The notes beneath the pieces were generated by a model, which saw only the letters and a list, made by a program, of their open reading frames with translations, was not told the origin of the DNA and did not search any database. A stretch of 32,000 nucleotides of DNA, from the NCBI RefSeq assembly GCF_042651785.1, contig NZ_JBHSEC010000003.1:72547-104546 (forward strand), written 5' to 3'. Positions 9,837 to 26,917 of this stretch are shown in pieces. Within the stretch, counting starts at the first letter, position 1; every line of letters begins with the position of its first letter. Made by a program: the position numbers and the translations under genes. This DNA comes from Chungangia koreensis (GTDB lineage: Bacteria; Bacillota; Bacilli; Bacillales_A; Planococcaceae).

Positions 9837-11147
9837 TTATAGTGGTACGTAGCGCCAAGGATTGACAGCACTTGGTCCTTTAGATGACCAGTTACCGATA
9901 TGGAACTCAAAGTGCAAGTGGGAGCCAGTTGAACCACCGGATGAACCCATTGCAGCAATGTGTTCTCCTTTATCAACCGATTGGCCAGAACTTACACCGA
10001 TACTCGATAAATGCGCATATACTGTCGTATAGATTTGGCCGTCAACTGAGTGGGTAATCATGATGACATTACCGTAAGTTCCCATCGTCCCGGCATAAGA
10101 AACGACACCGTCACCAGCTGCATAGATGGGAGTACCAACACTGTTAGCAATATCTTGTCCACGGTGAGCCTTATAAACTCCAGTAATCGGATGGACACGC
10201 CCTCCAAAACCGGATGAGAAACGTCCGGAAGCCGGGCTTGTCCAATCTCCACTTGATACGGTAGGAGAAGAACTGCCGCCGCTATTAGTGCTATTGTTTT
10301 TATTTTGAGCAGCTTTTTTTGCAGCAGCTTCTCTACGTTTACGTTCTGCCTCTTTGCGAGCAATCTCTGCTAAACGTTTCTGTTCGGCTACAATTTTCGC
10401 CTCAAGTTCTTCGCTTACTTGGTGAGCATCATGTAAATCTTCTTCAAGATCTGCCTTTTCAGCACGAAGTTTTGCTACTTCAGCCTCCAACTGATCGACT
10501 AATTTACCTTGTTGGACTTTTTGTTGATCAAGTGAAGCCTTTAAATCTATTAACTTCTGTTTATTCAATTCTTGTTGTGCACGCTTATCTTCCACTAATT
10601 TCTTTTGTTCTTCAAGCGCTTGTTTATCAGCCGCTTGTTCTTCTAAGATCTTGCGGTCTGCCTCCATTAACGTATTTACAGCAGAGAAGCGGTCAATAAA
10701 GTCAATGAAGCTGTTGGCACCTAATAACACATCTAAATAGTTAACAGAACCACCGCTTGCTTGAACTGCACGAATCCGCTCGCGTAGCAATTCGTCACGT
10801 TCAGCAATTTTCTTTTCCAATTTGGCAATTGAAACTTTTAATTCGTCAATTTCCTTTGTTGTCTGAGCGATTTCTTCATTTACATGTTTGATCTTACCAT
10901 TAGTATTTGCAATTTTATTATTCAGCTCTTGGATTTTCTCTTGGAGCAATTGAATTTCAGTTTTATTTTTATTAATCTCTACGTTCTTTTCACCAATTTG
11001 TGAATCTAAACTATCTTTTTTCTGTTCAATTTGTTTTTGCTGATCCTTCAAGTTGCTCATTGTATCGGCCATTGCAGCCGGTGCGGAAAAAGCAAAACCT
11101 ACAGTCGCAGCCACTGACAGCAGCATCCATTTCGATTTCTTCAACAT
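9837..11147 (-). CDS. Secreted coiled-coil M23/LytM peptidoglycan endopeptidase (EnvC/PcsB-like partner of FtsEX)
   Basis: 436 aa with a signal peptide (MLKKSKWMLLSVAATVGFAFSAPAAMA), about 270 aa of heptad-rich coiled coil and a Ser/Asn-rich linker. The C-terminal M23 domain has intact HxxxD (HRGQD) and HxH (HLHFEFH) motifs. The gene lies 32 nt downstream of ftsX. Confidence 0.85.
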   Translation of the reverse strand: MLKKSKWMLLSVAATVGFAFSAPAAMADTMSNLKDQQKQIEQKKDSLDSQIGEKNVEINKNKTEIQLLQEKIQELNNKIANTNGKIKHVNEEIAQTTKEIDELKVSIAKLEKKIAERDELLRERIRAVQASGGSVNYLDVLLGANSFIDFIDRFSAVNTLMEADRKILEEQAADKQALEEQKKLVEDKRAQQELNKQKLIDLKASLDQQKVQQGKLVDQLEAEVAKLRAEKADLEEDLHDAHQVSEELEAKIVAEQKRLAEIARKEAERKRREAAAKKAAQNKNNSTNSGGSSSPTVSSGDWTSPASGRFSSGFGGRVHPITGVYKAHRGQDIANSVGTPIYAAGDGVVSYAGTMGTYGNVIMITHSVDGQIYTTVYAHLSSIGVSSGQSVDKGEHIAAMGSSGGSTGSHLHFEFHIGNWSSKGPSAVNPWRYVPL

Positions 11148-13090: not shown

Positions 13091-13444
13091 TTATTTTTGC
13101 TTAGATAAATAATCTACAACAGCATCCAAGTCTTCACCTGAAATAAGTCCGGGAGGCATTTGTCCTTTACCATTTTCAATGGTGCTGCGAATTTCATCTG
13201 CAGACAAACGGCCACCAACATCGTTAAGAGATGGTCCCATTCCGCCTTCAAGGTTTTGACCATGGCAGGAAATACAGCTTTGGTTCAATACTTCTTCAGC
13301 GTGAGCAGTTGTATCTGCGCCGCCTCCATTGTCGCCGTTTCCGCCGTTGTTGTTGTTGTCGCCGCCTGCATTATCGTTGCCGCCGCCACAAGCGCCAAGA
13401 ACTAAACCAGCGCCCAATAACAACATCATGAACTTTTTCTTCAT
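13091..13444 (-). CDS. cccB: Membrane-bound lipoprotein cytochrome c-551
   Basis: 117 aa with a lipobox (LVLGAC), a Gly/Asn/Asp low-complexity tether, the heme c motif CISCH and a distal Met (GQMPPG). It lies between the yvjA-like gene and ftsE, as in B. subtilis. Confidence 0.85.
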   Translation of the reverse strand: MKKKFMMLLLGAGLVLGACGGGNDNAGGDNNNNGGNGDNGGGADTTAHAEEVLNQSCISCHGQNLEGGMGPSLNDVGGRLSADEIRSTIENGKGQMPPGLISGEDLDAVVDYLSKQK

Positions 13445-14613: not shown

Positions 14614-14647
14614 TTAATAACTATTCAGAAAAAAGGGGATATTGAAT

Positions 14648-15568
14648 ATGGATTTAAAAGATTGTTCTTTACTACTATCTTTATATGAAGAAAAAAATTT
14701 GAGAAAAGTCGCTGAAAAACTTTATATATCCCAACCTGCAATTACATATCGTTTGAAACAGATTGAAGATAAGTTTCAAGCACGTTTAGTGGAAAGGACC
14801 AATAAAGGAGTTGTCTTTACTTTGGAAGGCGAGCATGTCGTGAAATTTGCCCAGACAATGCTAAATGAGTTTTCCGCTGCAAAGGACTATGTTTATAACA
14901 TGAGCAGCGAAGTCCGTGGAGTTCTTAGACTATCAGTTACCAGTAATTTCGCCCAATATATTTTACCTAATCTCCTTAAGAGATTCTCAGAGCAGTATCC
15001 CAATGTGCAAATACATCTTAAAACAGGAAAGAGCAAAAATGTCCTTCAGCAGCTTAAAGATGACGATGCCCATCTCGCTATTTTAAGAGGTGATTACGCT
15101 TGGCTGGAGGAAAAAAAGAAAATCCATCAAGAAAGGATCCTTCTTATTTCAAAAATCCCTTTAAAGATGGAAAATCTCCCTGACTATCCTCGGATTTTTT
15201 ACGTAACGGATCAACTATTAAGCCAGATTATCGATAACTGGTGGACCGAAAACTACTCATCTCCTCCAAACAATGTAGTGGAAGCCGACAAGGTAGAGGC
15301 TTGCAGGGATTTGGCGAGAACAGGAATGGGGTACACAATCATCCCTGAAATTTGCCTTAGCAAATCACATTTTGACGAGATGTTTGTGTACCCTCTTAAA
15401 AGTCCTCAAGAAGACTTAACTATTCGGAATACTTGGCTTCTCCATAAAAGGAAATCCCGAGAATTATCTGTAGTAGATGCCTTCATTGATTTTATCGAAA
15501 ATGAATTGAAATCCGGTGAGATCATTCGCGTTTTCAATCCGGAAGAACATGTCGAACTTCTAATTTGA
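14648..15568 (+). CDS. LysR-family transcriptional regulator
   Basis: The start is trimmed to ATG 14648 (MDLKDCSLLLSLYEEKN...), 8 nt after AAGGGGA. There is an N-terminal wHTH (LRKVAEKLYISQPAITYRLKQIEDKF) and a LysR substrate-binding domain. Confidence 0.85.
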   Translation: MDLKDCSLLLSLYEEKNLRKVAEKLYISQPAITYRLKQIEDKFQARLVERTNKGVVFTLEGEHVVKFAQTMLNEFSAAKDYVYNMSSEVRGVLRLSVTSNFAQYILPNLLKRFSEQYPNVQIHLKTGKSKNVLQQLKDDDAHLAILRGDYAWLEEKKKIHQERILLISKIPLKMENLPDYPRIFYVTDQLLSQIIDNWWTENYSSPPNNVVEADKVEACRDLARTGMGYTIIPEICLSKSHFDEMFVYPLKSPQEDLTIRNTWLLHKRKSRELSVVDAFIDFIENELKSGEIIRVFNPEEHVELLI

Positions 15569-16600
15569 AAGCAGCAGACCATCGTCATAGTTTTTGAGAA
15601 TCCCCTTACCCGATACAAGGGGGTAGTGGCATGCAACGGAATGTCCCTCTTCAAATGCATTTAACTCAGGTGTTTCTTGTTTACAAAGGTCAGTTGCGTA
15701 TGGACATCTAGTATGGAACCTGCATCCACTTGGCGGATTGACGGGACTCGGAAGATCCCCCTCCAAAACTTGTCGGGTTCCTCTTTTTCTTAATGTTGGA
15801 TCTGGTATTGGAATAGCCTGCAATAATCCTTCCGTGTATGGATGAAGAGGCTTGCTGAATAACTGCTCCTTCGTTCCAAGCTCAACGATTTTCCCTAAAT
15901 ACATCACTGCAATTCGATCGCTTATATATTTTACAGCTGGTAAGCCATGGGCGATAAAAATATAGGTAAGTCCGAACTCCTTTTGTAACTTTGCAATTAA
16001 ATTCAAAATCTGTGATTGTACCGATACATCCAGGGCAGAAACTGGCTCATCACAAATAATAAGCTTCGGATTTAATGCAAGAGCCCTTGCAATGCCGATT
16101 CGCTGCCTTTGACCACCGCTAAACTCATGTGGATATCGGTTCGCATGCTCCGGACGAAGTCCTACAATCTCCAAAAGTTCCTTTACTCGATTCTTCAATT
16201 CTTTGCCCCTATGCAATTTATGGGCAATTAAAGGTTCGGCTATAAGATCAAACACCTTTAAACGTGGATTTAGCGAAGAAAAAGGATCTTGAAAAATCAT
16301 CTGTATATGCTTCCGCTCCTGTCTCAATTCACTCTTGGACAGTTTGGTCAGATTTTTACCGTTAAAAATAATAGTCCCTTCGGTTGGTTCAAGGATATTC
16401 ATAATCAGGTTTCCTGTTGTTGACTTTCCACAACCTGACTCCCCTACAATGCCTAAGGTTTCCCCTTTTTTCACTTCAAAGGCAACACCATCAACAGCTT
16501 TCAAAAATTCCTTGCTTTTGGAAAGGAAACCTGACTCGAGCTCGAAGTATTTCTTTAGATCCTTTACTTGTAACAAGACTTCCTCATTCGACGATTGCAT
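15560..16600 (-). CDS. Oligopeptide/dipeptide ABC transporter ATP-binding protein (OppF/DppF type)
   Basis: Walker A GESGCGKST, signature FSGGQRQR, Walker B LIICDEPVSALD. The C-terminal oligopeptide-type extension carries a Cys cluster (CRFHTRCPYATDLC). Confidence 0.88.
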   Translation of the reverse strand: MQSSNEEVLLQVKDLKKYFELESGFLSKSKEFLKAVDGVAFEVKKGETLGIVGESGCGKSTTGNLIMNILEPTEGTIIFNGKNLTKLSKSELRQERKHIQMIFQDPFSSLNPRLKVFDLIAEPLIAHKLHRGKELKNRVKELLEIVGLRPEHANRYPHEFSGGQRQRIGIARALALNPKLIICDEPVSALDVSVQSQILNLIAKLQKEFGLTYIFIAHGLPAVKYISDRIAVMYLGKIVELGTKEQLFSKPLHPYTEGLLQAIPIPDPTLRKRGTRQVLEGDLPSPVNPPSGCRFHTRCPYATDLCKQETPELNAFEEGHSVACHYPLVSGKGILKNYDDGLLLSN

Positions 16601-17585
16601 GCTGGGTCACCACCTCTTCTTTATGCAGCCAGCAGCGCACTTGATGTGTTTCATCACCAAATAATTCAGGAGAATGCTCACGGCAATGATCCATTCTAAG
16701 TGGACAACGAGAATAAAACCTACAACCCTTCGGCCAATTCGAAGCGCTTGGAACTGATCCTGGAATTGCCTTCAGTTCATCTTCCAGTTCATGTACCTTT
16801 GGTGTACTTTCCATTAGACCGACCGTGTATGGGTGCTTCGGCTCCTTGAAAATAGTAAATACGTCCGACTCTTCAACAACTTGACCAGCATACATGACAA
16901 TCACTTTATCAGCCATCTCAGCAACTACACCTAAGTCATGGGTAATGATTATAATAGACGTATTAAATTCCTCTTTTAACTCAAGCATCAGATTCAAGAT
17001 TTGCGCCTGTATGGTAACATCAAGCGCTGTCGTCGGCTCATCAGCAATGAGTATTTTCGGGTTACAAGAAAGAGCCATGGCAATCATTACCCTTTGCCTC
17101 ATACCACCGCTAAGTGAGTGAGGGTAAGATTCGTATATCTTCTCTGGCCTGGCTATGCCCACCTTCTTCAGTAATTCAATACTCTTAGTTTTCGCTTCCT
17201 TTTTACTAACAGATTGATGCAGCAGAATCGTTTCCGCTATTTGCTCACCAACTTTAAAAACCGGATTGAGCGATGTTAAAGGTTCCTGAAAAATCATGGA
17301 TATGTCATTCCCACGGATTTTCCGCATTTCGCTTTCCTTAATTTTCGCCAAGTCCTTACCATCAAATAGAATAGAACCTCCGTCGATTTTTCCAGGAGGG
17401 TTTATTAAACGGAGGATAGAGAAAGACGTGACGCTTTTTCCGCAACCGGATTCGCCGACGATTGCAATTGTTTCTCCTTTATTCATGGTAAATGAAACAC
17501 CATCAACCGCCTTTACCTGCCCATCTTCTGTATAGAATGATGTTCTAAGATTCTCAACTTTAAGTGCTATATTCTCCAATGCCAT
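16584..17585 (-). CDS. Oligopeptide/dipeptide ABC transporter ATP-binding protein (OppD/DppD type)
   Basis: The start is trimmed to ATG 17585 (MALENIALKVENLRTSF...), which shares one base with the upstream stop (TGATG). Walker A GESGCGKSV, signature LSGGMRQR, C-terminal CRFYSRCPLRMDHC. Confidence 0.88.
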   Translation of the reverse strand: MALENIALKVENLRTSFYTEDGQVKAVDGVSFTMNKGETIAIVGESGCGKSVTSFSILRLINPPGKIDGGSILFDGKDLAKIKESEMRKIRGNDISMIFQEPLTSLNPVFKVGEQIAETILLHQSVSKKEAKTKSIELLKKVGIARPEKIYESYPHSLSGGMRQRVMIAMALSCNPKILIADEPTTALDVTIQAQILNLMLELKEEFNTSIIIITHDLGVVAEMADKVIVMYAGQVVEESDVFTIFKEPKHPYTVGLMESTPKVHELEDELKAIPGSVPSASNWPKGCRFYSRCPLRMDHCREHSPELFGDETHQVRCWLHKEEVVTQHAIVE

Positions 17586-18505
17586 CACCCCTCCATCTGC
17601 AACCGCGGATCCAAAACATCGCGCAGCCAGTCGCCTAAGAAAATGATTCCTAAAACAGTTACTGTAATGGCAATACCAGGGAAAGTAGAAATCCACCATG
17701 AAGTGGCTAAATAATCACGTCCACTTTCCAAGATTCCTCCCCAAGAAATCATCGGGGGTTGAATCCCCATACCTAAATAACTGAGGGAAGCTTCCAGTAG
17801 GATGGCAGTCGCAATACTTAATGTCGATACGACGATAAATGAGGAAATGACATTCGGTAGAATGTGCTTGAATATGATTCCTCCATCTTTTGTGCCTAAA
17901 GTTCTGGATGCCTTTACAAAGTCCCGTTCCTTAATAGATAGGACCTCCCCTCTTACAAGGCGGGCGTATGTCACCCATTTGGTTGCACCAATTACAAATA
18001 CTAACGTCCAAAGGCCTGGACCAAATACTCCCAAGACGACTAACATAAATAAAATATTCGGAATCGCAAGGACGGCATCAACCCCGCGCATGATGAAATT
18101 ATCTAATAAACCACCATAATATCCCGCAAATAGTCCAAGTACGAGTCCTATTGCACCGGCAATCCCAATAGCACAAACCCCTACAATTAGAGATACTTGT
18201 GTTCCCACAATAATTCTACTCAGTAAATCTCTTCCTAAGTTATCAGTTCCAAGTATATGTTCAGAAGTCCCACCCTCCATCCAGAATGGGGGTTTGTTAA
18301 TCATAATAGGATTGATTGAATTTGGATCAAAAGGTGCCAGCTGATTTGCAAAGATACCTACGATCGTAACAAGCATGACAATGACGAAACCGATCATTCC
18401 GGTTTTACTTTTCCATAATTTCCGTACAAGGCGGATAAATTCATTCTTTCTTTTAATATCTTCCCCTGCAATTTCGATTAACGACTGCTTAGTTGGTGCC
18501 TGCAT
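17585..18505 (-). CDS. Peptide ABC transporter permease (OppC/DppC type)
   Basis: The start is trimmed to ATG 18505 (MQAPTKQSLIEIAGEDIKRK...), which follows GGGGGAGGGG. It has six TM segments and the N-terminal OppC-type extension. Confidence 0.85.
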   Translation of the reverse strand: MQAPTKQSLIEIAGEDIKRKNEFIRLVRKLWKSKTGMIGFVIVMLVTIVGIFANQLAPFDPNSINPIMINKPPFWMEGGTSEHILGTDNLGRDLLSRIIVGTQVSLIVGVCAIGIAGAIGLVLGLFAGYYGGLLDNFIMRGVDAVLAIPNILFMLVVLGVFGPGLWTLVFVIGATKWVTYARLVRGEVLSIKERDFVKASRTLGTKDGGIIFKHILPNVISSFIVVSTLSIATAILLEASLSYLGMGIQPPMISWGGILESGRDYLATSWWISTFPGIAITVTVLGIIFLGDWLRDVLDPRLQMEG

Positions 18506-18518
18506 ATTTCCCCTCCCC

Positions 18519-19436
18519 CTAGTTGTACTTAATGCGGGGATCAAAGATCCTATATAAAATATCCGCAATTAAATTCAAGAAAATGACCATGATCGCTACG
18601 ACAAATACTGCAGCTTGAACTATTGCCATATCCCGGCCGTTTACTGCCTGAACTAATAATTGTCCAAGTCCTGGATAGGAAAATACCACTTCCGTTACTA
18701 ATGCTCCACTCACAAGAGTGGATATTTGAAGGAACAGGATGGTGATTACCGGGACAAGTGAGTTTTTAAATCCATGCTTCATAATAAGCGTAAATGGTTG
18801 TACTCCTTTGCTCTTAGCAGTCCGTATGTAATCCTGCTGAAGAATTTCAAGCATGCTCGAACGGATTAACCTTGTCATCTCAGCAGAAACTGCAGTTCCT
18901 AAAGTAATTGAAGGGAGGACAAGATGCCTCCAAGTCTCATTACCGGACACGGGTAAAACTTGTAGCATTACTCCAAAAACGAGCATAAGCATGATACCCA
19001 GCCAAAAGTTTGGCATTGCTTTACCTAATATCGAAAAACCGGTTACAAACATATCAAGGAATGTGTTCCTTTTAACAGCCGAAATGATTCCTGCCGGTAT
19101 AGCAATAAGTACCGCTACCACCATGGAAGTCAAAGCAAGTATTAAGGTTGCCGGAAGACGTTCCATGACGATTGGCAAAGCAGGTTGAGCATAACGGAAT
19201 GACTGGCCAAAATCTCCTTGCACTAAATTGAGTAGAAAATAACCAAACTGAACCGGTACTGGTTCATTCAACTTCAGTGCTTCCCGGAGATTTTCAATAT
19301 CTTCTGGAGTGGCATCCTCAGGAAGCATCAACGATACGGGATCCCCTGCCATGTACACAAGGAAAAAAACAATGAAGGTTATCAAAATTAAAACGGGTAC
19401 AATTTGCAAAATCCTCTGCCTTAAATACTTCCCCAT
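18519..19436 (-). CDS. Peptide ABC transporter permease (OppB/DppB type)
   Basis: The start is trimmed to ATG 19436 (MGKYLRQRILQIVPVLILITFIVFFL...), 6 nt after AGGAGG. The N-terminus is the canonical OppB type, and the protein ends ...DPRIKYN. Confidence 0.88.
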   Translation of the reverse strand: MGKYLRQRILQIVPVLILITFIVFFLVYMAGDPVSLMLPEDATPEDIENLREALKLNEPVPVQFGYFLLNLVQGDFGQSFRYAQPALPIVMERLPATLILALTSMVVAVLIAIPAGIISAVKRNTFLDMFVTGFSILGKAMPNFWLGIMLMLVFGVMLQVLPVSGNETWRHLVLPSITLGTAVSAEMTRLIRSSMLEILQQDYIRTAKSKGVQPFTLIMKHGFKNSLVPVITILFLQISTLVSGALVTEVVFSYPGLGQLLVQAVNGRDMAIVQAAVFVVAIMVIFLNLIADILYRIFDPRIKYN

Positions 19437-19499
19437 ACCTCTCCTCCTAATGGGAAGAGAAGACAAGCATGAAATCACTTGTCTTCCCGATTCCCGATA

Positions 19500-21086
19500 T
19501 TATTTCAATTTAATGTTTTCGATTATAAACATTTCATCTACACGTGGTTCAAATTCAAGGCGATCATTAACTCCGTAAAAACTGTACACTTGGAATAGTG
19601 GAACAATCGGCACTTCCTCAGCAACAATTTCTTGAACCCTCTTGTATTGCTGTTCACGCTCTTCAGCATTCAAATTAACGTTTGCTGCATCCAATAATTT
19701 ATCGACTTCATCGTTTTTATAGTCATTAATGGAATCGGCACGTTCAGAATGATAATAGTCAAGGGCTTGTGCTGCATCGAATAATGAAGCCCCTAAAGCA
19801 ATGAAATAGGCATCCTTATGCTCTTCTGCTTTACGAAGATCAACGAATGCTCCCCATTCCATGAACTCCAGTTTTGCAGTGATACCAGCTTGTGCAAGCA
19901 TTCCCGCTATCATTTCTACAGTAGCTTTGTCCTGGAAATAACGGCCATTTGGTGAATGGAGAGTAATTTCCACTCCTTTTTCATATCCAGCTTCCTTAAG
20001 TAGACTCTTCGCTTTTTCCAAATCATAATTGTATTTTCCGAATAGATCTTCATTAATACCGAAGTTTCCTGGATTCATACGTGTTAACGTCGGTTTTCCA
20101 CCGCCGCCAAGAATATGGTCAACGAGGGCTTGATCGTCAATTGCATAATCGATTGCCTGACGAACTTTAACATCAGAAGTCGGATATCCTTCCGTTACAC
20201 GTAGGAATAGCATCATCGTCCGGTTAACCGGTCCAGTAACGACATCTGTTCCGTCATTGTTTTTAATCCGTTCCCAATCCGTAGGAGGAACTTCTGTTGC
20301 AATATCCACTCCGCCTGTCAATAATTCAGCAACCCTTGTGGAGTTCTCAGGGATAGCCCTGAATACAACTTGCTCCCATTCCGTATTCACACCATTAAAA
20401 TAGTCATCGTTTCTCTCCAATACAACACGGTCATCTTTTTTCCACTCAACAAATTTGAATGGACCCGTTCCTATAGGATTTTCCAAGAAATAGTCAAATC
20501 CGTTCTCTTCAATATATTTACTCGGCAGCATCCCCGAACCGAGGCGCGCAACACGATTTAACAATACTGGGTCTACTTCGAACGTTTTAATATGAACTGT
20601 ATAATCATCAATGATTTCAACCGATTCTATTTGCTTATAGTTAGGGTGCTCACGCAATGAAGAATCTGTCGCCACCCGCTCTAAACTATATTTAACGTCA
20701 GCAGCTGTGAAGGGATCACCATTGTGGAATTTAACATCATCCCTCAACTTGAATTCCCAAGTATGGTCATCGACAAGTTTCCACTCTTTCGCCAAATCAG
20801 GGACAATCGTTCCATTTTCGTTTTTAACCAAGTAGTTATACATATTGATATGAATGGCTTCAGTTGCAGTGGTTTGGTGATTATGAGGGTCGAACGTTAA
20901 CATATCCGTCCCCATTGCGATCGTCAGTGTCAGATTTTCTTCAGCTTCGACTTTAACTGTGCCTTCATCCTTTCCCTTATCGCCCCCGGTTGACGGCTCA
21001 GTAGTACCTTGGCCGCTATCCGAACATGCTGCTATGAATAGAGACAAGACAACTAAGAATGTGAATAACAAGCGTTTATTCTTCAT
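19500..21086 (-). CDS. Family-5 (peptide/nickel) ABC substrate-binding lipoprotein (OppA/DppA type)
   Basis: 528 aa with a lipobox (LFIAACSD) and a Gly/Glu/Lys-rich tether. Size and sequence character fit SBP family 5. The SD GGGGTG lies 5 nt upstream. Confidence 0.85.
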   Translation of the reverse strand: MKNKRLLFTFLVVLSLFIAACSDSGQGTTEPSTGGDKGKDEGTVKVEAEENLTLTIAMGTDMLTFDPHNHQTTATEAIHINMYNYLVKNENGTIVPDLAKEWKLVDDHTWEFKLRDDVKFHNGDPFTAADVKYSLERVATDSSLREHPNYKQIESVEIIDDYTVHIKTFEVDPVLLNRVARLGSGMLPSKYIEENGFDYFLENPIGTGPFKFVEWKKDDRVVLERNDDYFNGVNTEWEQVVFRAIPENSTRVAELLTGGVDIATEVPPTDWERIKNNDGTDVVTGPVNRTMMLFLRVTEGYPTSDVKVRQAIDYAIDDQALVDHILGGGGKPTLTRMNPGNFGINEDLFGKYNYDLEKAKSLLKEAGYEKGVEITLHSPNGRYFQDKATVEMIAGMLAQAGITAKLEFMEWGAFVDLRKAEEHKDAYFIALGASLFDAAQALDYYHSERADSINDYKNDEVDKLLDAANVNLNAEEREQQYKRVQEIVAEEVPIVPLFQVYSFYGVNDRLEFEPRVDEMFIIENIKLK

Positions 21087-21117
21087 AAATACACCCCTTT
21101 TGTGTTTTAAATTCTAC

Positions 21118-22494
21118 TTAACCTACAGAAATCCCTTTATTAACCAAACTGTATTCATGCATAACTGTGCATATAAATTTAATCCCTTCAATAAAATCCT
21201 CAATACGAATGTTCTCATTAGGAGCGTGGATCCTTGAATCTTCGTAACCTACACCAAAACTAACAGCCGGAATATTATATTGAGCTGCTAATTTATACAT
21301 AGGACCGGTTCCTGGAGACATGGAAAAGATTTGTGGAGGCTTACCGTAAAACTTCTCCGCTTCTTTAATGGCCACTTTGGCAAGTGGATCGCCCGGATCA
21401 GTTTTAGCTGCCTTCTTACCACTGATTTTATGAATGGTAATATCCTCGAAACCATGCTTATCTAAATGTTTGCGCAGGAGAACGATTATTTCATCTGGGT
21501 CCTGATCCGGAACGAGGCGAAAATCGATTTTCACTTTCGCTTCCGAGGGCAGAACGGTTTTCGATCCCTCTCCCGTGTAGCCGGAGTAAATTCCGCAAAT
21601 GGTACAAGTAGGCTGGAAGATGAACTTCTCTTTTAATTCGTCTCCATCCAAGTTAAGGAGAAAAGATTCCAACTCCAGGTTTTTGAGCATTTCTTTTTCA
21701 TGTAAAGGCATATTGGCAAGCATCTGTTTCTCCAGTTCGCTTGGCTGGTCAACTCTGTCATAAAATCCTTCTATTTTGACACGCTCATCCGTTCCTTTTA
21801 ACGTATTTAATGCCCAAACAAGCCGCCATGCAGGATTTTCGATAATTGCTGCATTCGAGGAGTGAAGATCAGTATTCGCACCTTTCGCCCTCAGTTCGAT
21901 ATACAGCATCCCCTTTAATCCAAGGCGTATAGATAATGCTCCATCCGGCGTCTTATAACCCGACTCCCAAATGTAACCGTCTGTTTCAATAATATCCGGA
22001 GCATTTTCAATCGCATGATGAGTATAAATACTTCCGAATTCCTCCTCTCCATCTACAAAAAATTTAATGTTCACTGGAAGCTCGCCATACACTTGTTGAT
22101 ATGCATGGATTGCAGCAATACGTGCGAAAAGATTCCCTTTGTTATCAGCGACTCCACGAGCAAACAATTTTCCATCATGAATTTCTGCACCGAATGGAGG
22201 ATAATCCCATAATTCAATTGGATCCTCAGGCTGAACATCATAATGGTTATAAAATGATAATGTCTTTTCCTTATCGCTAAGGATCTTTCCATATACAACT
22301 GGATGACGCCCAGTCGGTACAATCTGAACTTCCGCGTTTAATTTCAACAAATAACCTTCAACCATTGCAGCCATTTCATCAATTCCACGAAACTGAGTAG
22401 ATACACTCGGCTGCCTGCAACCTTCCTGTAACCAAGAAATGTATTGATCTCTATGCTGATCGATATATTCGTATAAATCCTTCAATCCTGTCAT
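21118..22494 (-). CDS. M20-family metallopeptidase (ArgE/DapE/ACY1/CPG2-type dipeptidase)
   Basis: About 458 aa. Metal and catalytic motifs are NHYDVQP, ARGVADNKG and DGEEEFGS, with a dimerisation-domain insert. The start is ATG 22494 or GTG 22497; the SD is weak. Confidence 0.8.
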   Translation of the reverse strand: MTGLKDLYEYIDQHRDQYISWLQEGCRQPSVSTQFRGIDEMAAMVEGYLLKLNAEVQIVPTGRHPVVYGKILSDKEKTLSFYNHYDVQPEDPIELWDYPPFGAEIHDGKLFARGVADNKGNLFARIAAIHAYQQVYGELPVNIKFFVDGEEEFGSIYTHHAIENAPDIIETDGYIWESGYKTPDGALSIRLGLKGMLYIELRAKGANTDLHSSNAAIIENPAWRLVWALNTLKGTDERVKIEGFYDRVDQPSELEKQMLANMPLHEKEMLKNLELESFLLNLDGDELKEKFIFQPTCTICGIYSGYTGEGSKTVLPSEAKVKIDFRLVPDQDPDEIIVLLRKHLDKHGFEDITIHKISGKKAAKTDPGDPLAKVAIKEAEKFYGKPPQIFSMSPGTGPMYKLAAQYNIPAVSFGVGYEDSRIHAPNENIRIEDFIEGIKFICTVMHEYSLVNKGISVG

Positions 22495-22625
22495 CACCTA
22501 CTAAACTTATTTTTGGAATCGCTTACATAGAGAATATCAAAAATTTAAAATTTCTGATAATACATATTTTTTTCTTGTGGTGATAAAAAAATTTTATTAA
22601 GGAAATAGAAAAACCTTTCATTCCG

Positions 22626-22641
22626 TTGGTTGGTTGGTTGG
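22626..22641. repeat. (TTGG)x4 tetranucleotide microsatellite, with one further GTTGG 8 nt downstream
   Basis: Direct reading: ccgTTGGTTGGTTGGTTGGaagaagtgGTTGGatag. Confidence 0.9.
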
Positions 22642-22691: not shown

Positions 22692-22783
22692 AATCTTTTG
22701 CACTTGATTAGAAAAGGCTGAGGGTTTTGCACCTATCGAGGGTTCTTTTGCGGTTTCAACCAAATGTTTTGCTGATGCAAGCT
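22692..22783. repeat. Degenerate tandem units with a TTTTGC core; the last three are spaced exactly 21 bp apart
   Basis: TTTTGC occurs at 22696, 22725, 22746 and 22767. The 21-mers are agggTTTTGCacctatcgagg, gttcTTTTGCggtttcaacca and aatgTTTTGCtgatgcaagct. Confidence 0.7.
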
Positions 22784-22816
22784 GATCTTTTTAAGGGAGG
22801 TTAGCTACCGAAGGAG

Positions 22817-22963
22817 CCATATTGCGGATTTTTGATCTCATATTGCTGCGTTTGGCATCTATATTGCGCTTTGCCGCTATCATATTGCGGCGTTTGCCGT
22901 TTATATTGCGCGATTTCCACTTCATATTGCGCGGAAACCAATTGATATTGCGTTCCAAAGGAT
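22817..22963. repeat. Seven tandem 21-bp units with an invariant ATATTGC core (array A)
   Basis: The core starts at 22819, 22840, 22861, 22882, 22903, 22924 and 22945, all exactly 21 bp apart. The units are ccATATTGCggatttttgatc, tcATATTGCtgcgtttggcat, ctATATTGCgctttgccgcta, tcATATTGCggcgtttgccgt, ttATATTGCgcgatttccact, tcATATTGCgcggaaaccaat and tgATATTGCgttccaaaggat. Confidence 0.95.
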
Positions 22964-22982
22964 TCCACCAATTTTTCCCCAT

Positions 22983-23015
22983 TAAAAAAGGTACACCAGA
23001 TAATCCAGTGCACCT
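22983..23015 (-). terminator. Rho-independent terminator of the secA-prfB operon
   Basis: The minus RNA AGGUGCAC-(11-nt loop)-GUGUACCU forms an 8-bp stem with one G-U pair, followed by UUUUUU. It begins 8 nt after the prfB stop. Confidence 0.8.
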
Positions 23016-23023
23016 CCAACATA

Positions 23024-24128
23024 TTAAGCTAGTTTCGAACGCAAATAGGCGTTGATGAATTGATCGATGTCGCCGTCCATGACGTTGTTGACGTTCCCGG
23101 TTTCGGCGTTCGTGCGGTGGTCTTTCACCATAGAATATGGGTGGAAGACGTATGAGCGGATTTGGCTTCCCCAGCCAATTTCCTGTTGGTCTCCACGGAT
23201 TTCCAACAATTCTTTTTCACGTTCTTCGATCTTCAGTTGATACAATTTCGCTTTCAACATCTTCATCGCTTGTTCACGGTTCTTAATCTGTGAACGTTCA
23301 TTTTGACATTGAACGACGACGCCCGTCGGCATATGCGTGATCCGGACTGCGGAGTCGGTCGTATTGATGTGCTGACCGCCGGCACCAGTTGCCCGGTACG
23401 TATCGACCTTCAAATCTTCACTCTTTACTTCAATCTCGATTTCTTCATTGAACTCAGGCATGACTTCGCAAGATGCGAAGGATGTATGACGACGTCCTGA
23501 AGAATCGAAAGGTGAAATCCGTACAAGACGGTGTACGCCTTTTTCCGCTTTCAAGTAGCCATATGCATTATGCCCCTTGATGGACAATGTCACCGACTTA
23601 ACGCCCGCTTCATCACCCGCAAGATAGTTCATCGTTTCAACCTTGAAACCGCGCTTTTCAGCCCAGCGCGTGTACATGCGAAGCAGCATGGACGTCCAGT
23701 CCTGGGACTCGGTACCGCCAGCACCCGCATGCAGTTCCAAAATTGCATTGTTCTTATCGTACGGTTCGCTCAATAGTAACTGAAGTTCGAATGCTGAAAG
23801 CTGCTCAACAAAGTCCGGCAATTCGTTACTCAGTTCCGTTTGAAGTTCCTCGTCAGGCTCTTCACGAAGAAGCTCCAGCGTCATCTCCAAGTTTTCCTGC
23901 GTATCGCTCAGTTCTTTGTACTCCCCGACTAAATCCTTCAACGAATTCGATTCACTGATGACGGTTTGTGCCGCCTGCTGGTCATCCCAGAAATCAGGCA
24001 TAAGCATTTGCTCATCCAATTCAGCGATTCTGGCCTCTTTGTTTTCTAAGTCAAAGAGACCCCCTAAAGTCCGCTAATTTCTTAGCTGTTTTATCCAACT
24101 CGTTCCGGATATCTCCTAATTCCATCAT
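23024..24128 (-). CDS. prfB: Peptide chain release factor 2, translated through a programmed +1 frameshift
   Basis: Frame 0 is ATG 24128 (7 nt after GGAGGA), [25 protein letters not shown], then TGA at 24053-24051. The +1 frame continues [24 protein letters not shown]... to the stop at 23024; the ORF track shows only this part. The SPF (RISPFDS) and GGQ (GAGGQHIN) motifs are present. Confidence 0.93.
24050..24065 (-). promoter_or_regulatory. RF2 autoregulatory +1 frameshift site
   Basis: The minus strand reads AGG GGG TCT CTT TGA C: an internal SD-like AGGGGG, a 3-nt spacer, the slippery CUU, and UGA followed by C. This is the canonical prfB recoding signal. Confidence 0.9.
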
Positions 24129-26688: not shown

Positions 26689-26718
26689 ATTTTACCATTG
26701 TGTGATAGGCCTATGCAA
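26689..26718 (-). promoter_or_regulatory. Candidate sigma-A promoter of secA-prfB
   Basis: Minus strand TTGCAT, 18 nt, TAAAAT, with an extended -10 (TGGTAAAAT). It ends about 30 nt upstream of the secA ATG. Confidence 0.45.
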
Positions 26719-26756
26719 ATAGGCTGACAATAATAGGAACGCCGGTAGGTCGAGGT

Positions 26757-26882
26757 ATGTTTCCGATTAAAGGAAGTTTAATGCTGATTGGATTGCAGTT
26801 AATGCTGATTCCTTTTCTGGTAATGCTGATTAGATTCTACTTAATGCTAATTGGACAACAGATTCCTCTAATTTCCTCTATA
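26757..26882. repeat. Six tandem 21-bp units: four strong units with a TAATGCTGATT core and two degenerate flanking units (array B)
   Basis: The core starts at 26779, 26800, 26821 and 26842, exactly 21 bp apart. The units are atgtttccgattaaaggaagt, tTAATGCTGATTggattgcag, tTAATGCTGATTccttttctg, gTAATGCTGATTagattctac, tTAATGCTaATTggacaacag and attcctctaatttcctctata. Confidence 0.95.
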
Positions 26883-26886
26883 ACAC

Positions 26887-26917
26887 TTAAAAGAAGCCCC
26901 CGAAATCGGAGGCTTCC
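26887..26917 (-). terminator. Rho-independent terminator of hpf
   Basis: The minus RNA GAAGCCUCCG-AUUU-CGGGGGCUUC is followed by UUUU. It begins 14 nt after the hpf stop. Confidence 0.85.

Follow-up and report, generated by a model that had tools for sequence, protein, structure and literature searches.

The stretch of DNA analyzed here (the window) comprises 32,000 nucleotides of the Chungangia koreensis contig NZ_JBHSEC010000003.1, positions 72,547 to 104,546, and the element in question is an intergenic array of short direct repeats, array A, that lies between prfB and the gene for an M20 peptidase. The window genes near it are all on the minus strand: hpf (27503-26931), secA (26666-24147), prfB (24019-23024), the M20 peptidase gene (22497-21118) and a five-gene opp operon. 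Array A (22819..22965, assigned to neither strand) is built of seven 21-bp units, each consisting of the core ATATTGCG on the plus strand, which is CGCAATAT on the gene-sense minus strand, and about 13 bp of variable spacer after it. Read along the minus strand, the prfB stop codon is followed by a terminator, about 32 nt, the seven CGCAATAT units with their 13 variable nt, four GCAAAA motifs, a (CCAA)4 run, a sigma-70-like match and finally the M20 gene.

The phasing of array A is exact. An earlier note on this DNA, made from the letters alone, had reported seven copies of ATATTGC at exact 21-bp steps from 22819 to 22945, and a listing of positions bears this out: the plus-strand copies start at 22819, 22840, 22861, 22882, 22903, 22924 and 22945, no other plus-strand copy occurs in the 32 kb, and all six core-to-core distances are 21 bp. 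The spaced pattern ATATTGC-N14-ATATTGC has six matches, where 100 dinucleotide-preserving shuffles lead one to expect 0.00. The note was also right that six of the seven share a longer core, since six of seven copies extend to ATATTGCG, whereas its remark that the core usually follows yC holds for four of the seven units. Tandem Repeats Finder (TRF) reports periods of 21 and 42 at array A, and in a scan of the window over all lags from 5 to 63 the three strongest local periodicities are lags 21 and 42 at array A and lag 21 at 26777-26860. Chains of phased hexamers in the window (at least three copies, periods 8-60) all have a period of 21 or 42, bar one chance-level case; shuffles yield 0.25 such chains. 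Next to array A on the M20 side lies array A' (22696..22793, likewise without strand), in which TTTTGC, reading GCAAAA on the minus strand, occurs four times, with starts at 22696, 22725, 22746 and 22767, at distances of 29, 21 and 21 bp. Here the earlier description, three to four units at 21 bp with a half-period offset from array A, holds: three units are in 21-bp register, the fourth stands 29 bp off, and the TTGC of array A' is offset from the nearest TTGC of array A by 53 bp, that is, by half a period or about five helical turns. Between array A' and the promoter-like site of the M20 gene the same spacer also contains a slippage-prone tetranucleotide tract, (GTTG)4.2 or (CCAA)4 on the other strand, at 22625-22641.

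Array A sits directly downstream of a transcription terminator. The intrinsic terminator of secA-prfB (minus strand, ~22984..23014) is a GGTGCACTGGAT/ATCTGGTGTACC hairpin with a TTTTTT run, which transcription reaches just before array A; it was read from the sequence, its hairpin is seen in the minimum-free-energy fold, and a simple terminator scan does not list it. The nearest array A core ends about 32 nt past the T-run, or 20 nt if 22963 is taken as the end coordinate, and the array is 322-468 bp from the M20 start (22497/22494), which agrees with the 20 nt and 320-470 bp given for its placement before. The sole sigma-70-like match upstream of M20/opp, TTATCA-18-TATTAT (minus strand, 22557..22586), fits the consensus at 9 of 12 positions and is a consensus match only. 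Since this match lies downstream of both arrays, arrays A and A' are probably not part of the operon leader.

A second array with the same layout is found between hpf and secA. Array B (26778..26861, no strand assigned) has four 21-bp units at distances of 21, 21 and 21 bp, with the core TAATGCTGATT on the plus strand and AATCAGCATTA on the minus strand, and its cores have a pairwise identity of 0.95 compared with 0.42 for its spacers. The hpf intrinsic terminator (minus strand, 26889..26917; GGAAGCCTCCGATTTCGGGGGCTTC then TTTT, read from the sequence) lies about 35 nt upstream of the four units, and the secA promoter follows about 50 bp on. The core of array B is unrelated to that of array A. 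Beside array B, a perfect palindrome, GCCTAT-TTGC-ATAGGC (26715-26745, minus strand), overlaps the -35 element (TTGCAT) of the likely secA promoter and could be an operator or a hairpin.

Arrays of this kind are not confined to Chungangia. We surveyed the secA neighborhoods of relatives, for a total of about 190-210 kb of Chungangia and Psychrobacillus loci. The SecA of the window is 100% identical to that of Chungangia koreensis; the next best, at 85% identity, is encoded on a Logan contig (L119), and those of named Psychrobacillus, Paenisporosarcina and Bhargavaea are 82-84% identical; in the NCBI taxonomy, Psychrobacillus belongs to Bacillaceae and Chungangia to Lactobacillales incertae sedis. 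All intergenic phased arrays detected in these loci repeat at 20-21 (or 42) bp, and there are at least eight independent arrays with differing cores, at least five of them further ones from Psychrobacillus, all with a 20-21 bp period. One follows an ilvA-like gene on the Logan contig (L119_a, GCAAGTA x6). The orthologous spacer between ilvA and catE carries GYGARTA x4 in L120/L127, ATRTTGCGARTA x6-8 in L128 (L128_a), about 8 units in P. glaciei (L130_a) and about 20 units in Psychrobacillus strain L4 (L302_a). P. glaciei has three more: AGRGCAAYCA x4 after a catE-like gene (L130_b), AATCGGTCGAATA x6 directly after the prfB terminator (L130_c) and TGGTTGCTCT x5 after a pcsB-like gene (L130_d). 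When the threshold is relaxed, period 21 accounts for 20 detections and any other period for at most 3, a few of the 20 being coding heptads or low-complexity sequence. The Paenisporosarcina and Bhargavaea loci scanned hold no intergenic array of the 21-bp type, and their only signal of this sort is a relaxed-threshold period-21 match within a PcsB coiled-coil coding region (L126). As a negative control, and only for that, we used 536 kb of unrelated metagenome loci from a search with the M20 protein; these contain no core-spacer array, and their only period-21 matches are contiguous heptamer repeats. Arrays A and B and the Psychrobacillus arrays are a clade-restricted family of intergenic arrays, each with a core and a spacer repeating at 20-21 bp. 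We define the family by four features, all of which array A has: an intergenic position, a minimum of four units that repeat every 20-21 bp, diverged spacers around a conserved core of 7-13 bp, and a location after an intrinsic terminator. The earlier note had proposed that array A be dismissed if the genome held no other arrays of the same period; array B and the Psychrobacillus arrays exist, and array A is therefore not a local duplication accident.

Within these arrays, cores are kept and spacers are not. The seven ATATTGC columns of array A are invariant (identity 1.0) and the eighth column is kept in six of seven units. Pairwise identity in array A is 0.84 for the core block and 0.29 for the spacer; the corresponding values are 0.75 and 0.27 for L119_a, 0.80 and 0.22 for L128_a, and 0.85 and 0.22 for L130_d. 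Spacer identities of 0.22-0.29 are at the level of unrelated sequence. Of 66 core-to-core steps in 13 arrays, about 54 measure exactly 21 bp. Because the spacers are saturated with substitutions yet free of indels, the 21-bp spacing as well as the core is, judged from the aligned units, under constraint across arrays. Some arrays look younger: in L130_c and L130_b, spacers two units apart still have an identity of 0.55-0.59, and TRF reports a 42-bp super-unit at 87%. Such graded ages, with these two arrays younger and the others saturated, would fit duplication followed by selective retention.

The cores also recur between loci. Each of the six Psychrobacillus lineages sampled has the ilvA-catE array; its core is related throughout (TTGCGARTA, GCGAGTA, GCAAGTA), but its spacers cannot be aligned, and its units number 4 to ~20. 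ATATTGCG is the core of Chungangia array A and of the Psychrobacillus ilvA-catE array, antisense in Chungangia and gene-sense in Psychrobacillus, and TGGTTGCTCT is the core of L130_d and, reverse-complemented, of L130_b, two non-orthologous P. glaciei loci with unrelated spacers. When random cores of matching length were simulated, a single shared 8-mer arose in 1.4% of trials and two shared 8-mers or longer matches in 0 of 20,000, so the cores come from a limited repertoire, which indicates either trans-acting recognition or copying between loci. A weaker resemblance did not hold up: several cores have TTGC in common, and the significance of this is lost once non-independent arrays are merged.

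Could array A simply be a gene? The earlier note had allowed for a small heptad-repeat protein (ILRxxxx x7), encoded by the plus-strand open reading frame (ORF) 22822-23055, and a minus-strand 'QY' ORF at 23022-22801 is a second candidate. Three of the six frames are open over array A, a Shine-Dalgarno-like GAAGGAG lies 5 nt upstream of the TTG at 22822, and array B has an open plus-strand frame (LMLIxxx) that follows AAGGAAG, 4 nt and ATG. However, open frames on a T-rich strand are expected from composition alone, and both plus-strand ORFs would have to run antisense through the terminator and 3' end of the neighboring gene. If one of these frames were translated, one might expect synonymous variation in the core, but there is none in any frame (ATA TTG or CAA TAT in seven of seven units), and the spacers are at random identity; in the ILR frame their mean pairwise identity is 0.33, 0.38 and 0.30 at the first, second and third codon position, respectively, and hence without a codon-position pattern. 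The ILR frame is cut by a TGA in L128, which has the same ATATTGCG core; the set of open frames varies among orthologous arrays, and none of the three minus-strand frames of array B is free of stops. The candidate peptides match nothing in Pfam or NCBIfam, and a set of 15 billion protein records, in which the SecA of this genome is present, has no entry for any of the four candidate ORFs. We consider a coding array very improbable, and the proposed protein is disfavored by the lack of synonymous core variation, the interrupted frame in Psychrobacillus and its absence from protein collections.

It is also possible that the array acts as RNA, transcribed as the M20/opp leader or by read-through from prfB, with CGCAAUAU repeats that bind an RNA-binding protein or serve as a sponge. 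The array does lie between a terminator and an operon, where read-through would take it in, and arrays A, A' and B are rich in purines and in A on their gene-sense strand, as is mRNA in this group. Against this, there is no promoter-like site between prfB and array A, the sole match (22586-22557) being downstream of the arrays, and array A has no match in Rfam at the gathering threshold or at E<=10. Its folding z-scores of -1.6 and -1.3 on the two strands are within the range of shuffles, and a strict 21-nt spacing has no obvious rationale in single-stranded RNA. The same core is opposite-stranded relative to genes in Psychrobacillus, and L130_b lies between two convergent terminators, where no transcription would be expected. 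The CGCAAUAU-repeat leader suggested earlier is thus unsupported by promoter, Rfam or folding evidence, and we regard an RNA function as improbable, if less so than a coding one.

A further alternative keeps the element at the level of DNA but does without a sequence-specific partner: phased A/T patches could curve the helix or wrap it around gyrase, HBsu or RNA polymerase, and so provide an upstream bend or a topological buffer behind the terminator. Array A has a 10.5-bp AT/GC periodicity (power 3.6, with a 95th percentile of 0.87), as have L130_c, L128_a and L119_a. In a wedge model, which counts as weak evidence here, the most curved 126 bp of the window are centered at 22832, at the junction of A' and A, and the spacers of array A contain a weaker GCAAA-like half-site about one turn past each core. 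Yet AT/GC content has no 10.5-bp periodicity in array B, L130_d or the strain L4 array after prfB, and the wedge model predicts no curvature for array B. Curvature calls for phased A-tracts and not for an invariant 8-13 bp core, and it would leave the recurrence of the same cores over several loci unexplained. A purely structural role seems to us quite unlikely, though ahead of an RNA element. Nor did a hairpin or REP-like (repetitive extragenic palindrome) structure find support, as L130_c, folded as DNA, does not surpass its shuffles (z = +0.4).

A two-turn period over unrelated sequences, protection of both cores and spacing, and independence from orientation and promoters together bear the signature of recognition of double-stranded DNA on one face. 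The independence from promoters is clearest for L130_b, which lies between two convergent terminators and has no promoter. We favor, tentatively, the view that array A is a noncoding row of ATATTGCG sites on one face of the helix, acting at the level of double-stranded DNA as a putative cooperative platform for a sequence-specific protein. The sites would lie two helical turns apart, all on the same side of the duplex, and the putative partner that assembles on them would be a sequence-specific and probably oligomerizing DNA-binding protein. The arrays sit in the free stretch that separates an intrinsic terminator from the promoter or terminator that comes next. There they probably arise, and gain units, through tandem duplication of 21-, 42-, ~82- or ~220-bp blocks, after which the core and the spacing are kept while the spacers randomize. 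We speculate that bound arrays could have a local chromosome-structure or roadblock function, or could titrate a regulator. The sequences themselves show the anatomy of the arrays, their membership in a family, the contrast between kept core and spacing and drifting spacers, the indifference to orientation and promoters, and the fast turnover among close relatives; protein binding, its cooperativity and any consequence of it are what we infer. A one-face array at the DNA level had been among the suggestions of the earlier note, and this part is favored by the 21-bp spacing with randomized spacers, by the occurrence of cores in both orientations and by the array between convergent terminators; the accompanying suggestion of an iteron or centromere identity is unsupported, as neither a rep or par gene nor a DnaA box lies nearby.

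Several observations weigh against a binding platform, and many of them are what one would expect of a selfish or neutral minisatellite, that is, a repeat that slips or exchanges unequally in the least constrained DNA, with the core as the microhomology for amplification that also sets the period, and without a cellular function. Turnover is fast. P. glaciei and strain L4, whose SecA proteins are 99.2% identical, have about 8 and about 20 units, respectively, in the ilvA-catE array, the difference having arisen by duplication of a whole [type 1 x5][type 2 x6] block, and array b has 4 units in one strain and at least 6 in the other. After the prfB stop codon the two strains have different terminators and unrelated arrays, as if terminator and array had been replaced together. 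In strain L4 (Psychrobacillus sp. L4, CP168496; L302 13696-14050) the array directly after prfB is a higher-order repeat whose 82-bp unit (x4.3, 90% identity) combines four ~20.5-bp subunits of the TAGGRGNNCATAG type, so that three genomes, Chungangia, P. glaciei and strain L4, have three unrelated arrays behind prfB. Higher-order periods of 41/82 bp are present in some arrays, and the 42-bp super-units at 87% are also satellite-like. Occasional steps of 17-20 bp occur in some arrays, at sub-block junctions or array ends. Array d shows no short-term protection of the core between P. glaciei and strain L4, with 3 substitutions in cores and 2 in spacers. At least six distinct cores among the arrays would demand several proteins or one of odd specificity, we identified no DNA-binding gene linked to any array, and the only regulator in the window, a LysR-type gene, is 7 kb from array A. 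Finally, no other Chungangia-like sequence turned up in the protein collection or the metagenomes searched, the search with the M20 protein found no metagenome relative above 57% identity, and in the nearest relative, L119, the orthologous hpf-secA and prfB-downstream intergenic regions measure just 130 and 123 bp and hold neither array A nor array B. The location of the arrays is like that of other bacterial interspersed repeats, and the staphylococcal STAR elements likewise expand and contract with no known function (PMC3532100).

What a satellite leaves unexplained is the division of each unit. Neutral turnover homogenizes or degrades whole units, whereas here invariant cores stand beside spacers at random level without indels. 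It likewise does not account for a 20-21 bp period in at least eight unrelated arrays, for identical 8- and 10-mers at non-orthologous loci with unrelated spacers, or for the ilvA-catE array having been kept through all sampled Psychrobacillus lineages. We see a functionless satellite as the most serious of the alternatives but on the whole as unlikely; behind it we place, in this order, the structural element, the RNA element and the small protein.

The binding-platform view can be extended in a way that takes up the fast turnover. Phase-locked core-spacer satellites might be genome-wide recognition arrays dedicated to a few DNA-binding proteins, for example as chromosome-organizing or roadblock sites behind terminators or as chromosomal decoy iterons that titrate regulators or foreign replication or partition proteins, and they might move as terminator-plus-array cassettes. 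Movement and replacement of such cassettes would explain why there are three unrelated arrays after prfB in three genomes. This broader scenario is one that we hold to be distinctly doubtful.

In their geometry the arrays resemble plasmid iterons, such as the seven 22-bp iterons of the R6K gamma origin and those of P1, F, pSC101, RK2 and lactococcal theta plasmids. Both have four to seven or more head-to-tail direct repeats about two turns apart, with a conserved core in a looser unit and all sites on one face of the DNA, and array A, with seven repeats at 21 bp, falls within the ~17-22 bp at about two turns that is typical of iterons. The context differs. No Rep-like domain was found in the window proteins scanned, array A is flanked by prfB and M20/opp, and there is no replicon about it, the surroundings being the housekeeping hpf-secA-prfB region of a chromosome; blastn of array A against plasmids (PLSDB) and phages gave no match. 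Nor do iterons come as several arrays with differing cores on one chromosome. No DnaA box (up to one mismatch) lies within 1.7 kb of array A or B, and the window as a whole has 4 matches where 9 are expected. Direct-repeat partition centromeres (parC of R1 and pSK41, sopC of F, tubC and the heptad arrays of omega proteins) are likewise short phased direct repeats; they assemble a cooperative nucleoprotein complex, evolve fast and are specific to their system. Their units of 7, 10-12, 20 or 43 bp differ in length from those of the arrays, which are dispersed over ordinary chromosomal intergenic regions, and no ParA/ParM/TubZ or ParR/ParB-like domain was found in the window proteins scanned, five ORFs being without a Pfam hit.

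Two-turn direct-repeat operators, among them those of the LytTR regulators AgrA and ComE, the half-sites of AraC/XylS proteins and tandem ARG boxes, also space repeats by 21 bp from center to center and place protomers on one face of the DNA. These operators consist of two, rarely three, repeats by the -35 of one promoter, whereas the arrays have 4 to ~20 repeats and lie 25-380 bp from any promoter or have none. The LytTR-type operator in particular consists of two 9-bp direct repeats with a 12-bp spacer and abuts the -35; array A shares the 21-bp spacing but has seven copies, about 235-380 bp from the sole promoter-like site, and the window proteins scanned include none with a LytTR domain, though such a regulator could be encoded elsewhere. 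CRISPR arrays share the repeat-spacer build and the constant unit length, but the repeats of 7-13 bp and spacers of 8-14 bp found here are far below those of CRISPR (repeats of ~23 nt or more, spacers of ~26 nt or more), and the window has no cas domains. A CRISPR-like acquisition of spacers was rejected, as the spacers of younger arrays are related by duplication.

The closest described chromosomal analogue, by our comparison, is STAR of Staphylococcus, with a 14-bp GC-rich consensus, T(G/A/T)TGTTG(G/T)GGCCC(C/A), spacers of at least 40 bp, expansion and contraction, and an unknown function (PMC3532100). STAR elements and the arrays both belong to Bacilli and are intergenic, with a short conserved core, locus-specific spacers and lineage-specific abundance (PMC3532100). 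The arrays differ in their 20-21 bp period and in 7-13 bp cores that vary with the locus, and array A, with its ATATTGCG core and 13-bp spacer, has no match to the STAR consensus. The TAACTGA heptamer repeats of Beggiatoaceae and cyanobacteria are contiguous 7-nt units, lineage-restricted, intergenic and of unknown function (PMC4679880). They and the arrays are both abundant lineage-restricted intergenic repeats, but the arrays are made of core and spacer at 21 bp. Contiguous repeats reminiscent of STRR or TAACTGA elements were seen upstream of M20 homologues in unrelated bacteria among the metagenome loci, (TATCGCR)n in L241 (3121-3270) and (TTCATCY)n in L295 (3858-3990). ToxI-like RNA repeats of type III toxin-antitoxin systems are tandem units of ~34-40 nt that directly precede a gene for a toxN-like endoribonuclease (PMC3401426); the period of array A is 21 nt and the downstream gene encodes an M20 peptidase. 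The earlier note knew of no described element with the structure of array A, and our literature searches, limited to work outside subscription journals, agree: they returned no description of 21-bp phased core-spacer arrays in Chungangia, Psychrobacillus or other Bacilli, which is weak evidence given that limit. The arrays are thus an apparently undescribed family of intergenic direct repeats with iteron-like geometry.

If the arrays prove to be protein-binding platforms, they would represent a new class of chromosomal cis-elements in Bacilli, marked by a two-helical-turn period and not by a common sequence, and they would offer a handle for finding a new DNA-binding system. Should they turn out to be functionless satellites, their fixed 21-bp period and protected cores would still call for a mechanistic explanation. 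Judged from a single locus, some Psychrobacillus genomes may contain as many as one array in every 5-10 kb or so. Arrays differ between near-identical strains and could be used as strain-typing markers, and they would confound the prediction of promoters and small ORFs because of their long open heptad frames with Shine-Dalgarno-like sequences.

A number of other candidate signals were set aside. The period-21 and period-18 signals at 13318-13388 and 10804-10999 are coding: the former encodes a linker rich in Gly and Asn in a cytochrome c lipoprotein, the latter the coiled coil of a PcsB-like protein, and neither has to do with the intergenic arrays. Scanning genome contigs for GCAATAT-N14 x3 gave at least 118 matches in unrelated phyla, mostly perfect tandem repeats or coding repeats in long ORFs. 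In viral sequences, ATATTGCG-N13 x3 matched two contigs with perfect 21-bp tandem repeats of coding type, and GGTTGCT-N14 x3 gave 89 unspecific matches; both are unrelated to the arrays. A sigma-54-like TGGCAT-N5-TTGC is present in one unit only and was taken as a coincidence. Boxes for ComA, Spo0A, CtsR, ScoC, ARG and CodY, compared by eye, are partial and inconsistent across units, and we claim none of them.

The ilvA-catE spacer of Psychrobacillus has features of its own. Downstream of the array, the catE-like (Glyoxalase) gene is preceded by a strong promoter, TTGACT-17-TATAAT, and after this promoter comes the palindrome TTAC-N5-GTAA (L120 4095-4150; L119 4665-4735; L130 3220-3260), which resembles operators of the CatR/YodB type. 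The ilvA-catE cores GCAAGTAA and GCGAGTAA hold an AGTAA half-site that is also seen in this promoter palindrome. The idea that cores are half-site mimics of a downstream operator, prompted by AAGTAA at the catE-like promoter and GCAAGTAA in L119, fails for arrays A and B. Different Psychrobacillus intergenic regions also contain a GC-rich element of about 120-150 bp (…TTTCCGTTYCAGRYGGACGC…CCGCGGG…GGAGTCGCC…CACTACAATC…; L128 13760-13880, L130 9190-9345, L119 ~20900-21002), which looks like a separate dispersed repeat or a MITE-like (miniature inverted-repeat transposable element) family.

Some minor observations concern the genes on either side of array A. Upstream of M20/opp, ATTATCAGAAATTTT (minus strand, 22540-22575) overlaps the -10-like hexamer; with 3 mismatches to the CodY box AATTTTCWGAAAATT, it is plausibly an ordinary regulator site. 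The M20 peptidase gene, oppABCDF and the convergent LysR-type gene (14642-15568, plus strand) form a block at 14642-22497 between prfB and a yitT-like gene. In Psychrobacillus, the prfB-yitT junction holds either nothing or a gene for a methyl-accepting chemotaxis protein, and the junction is therefore an insertion hot spot. The long ORF of prfB begins only at 24019 (TTG), about 125 nt after secA, and the annotated products of relatives have 366 aa (joined) or 327 aa, which is consistent with the usual programmed +1 frameshift.

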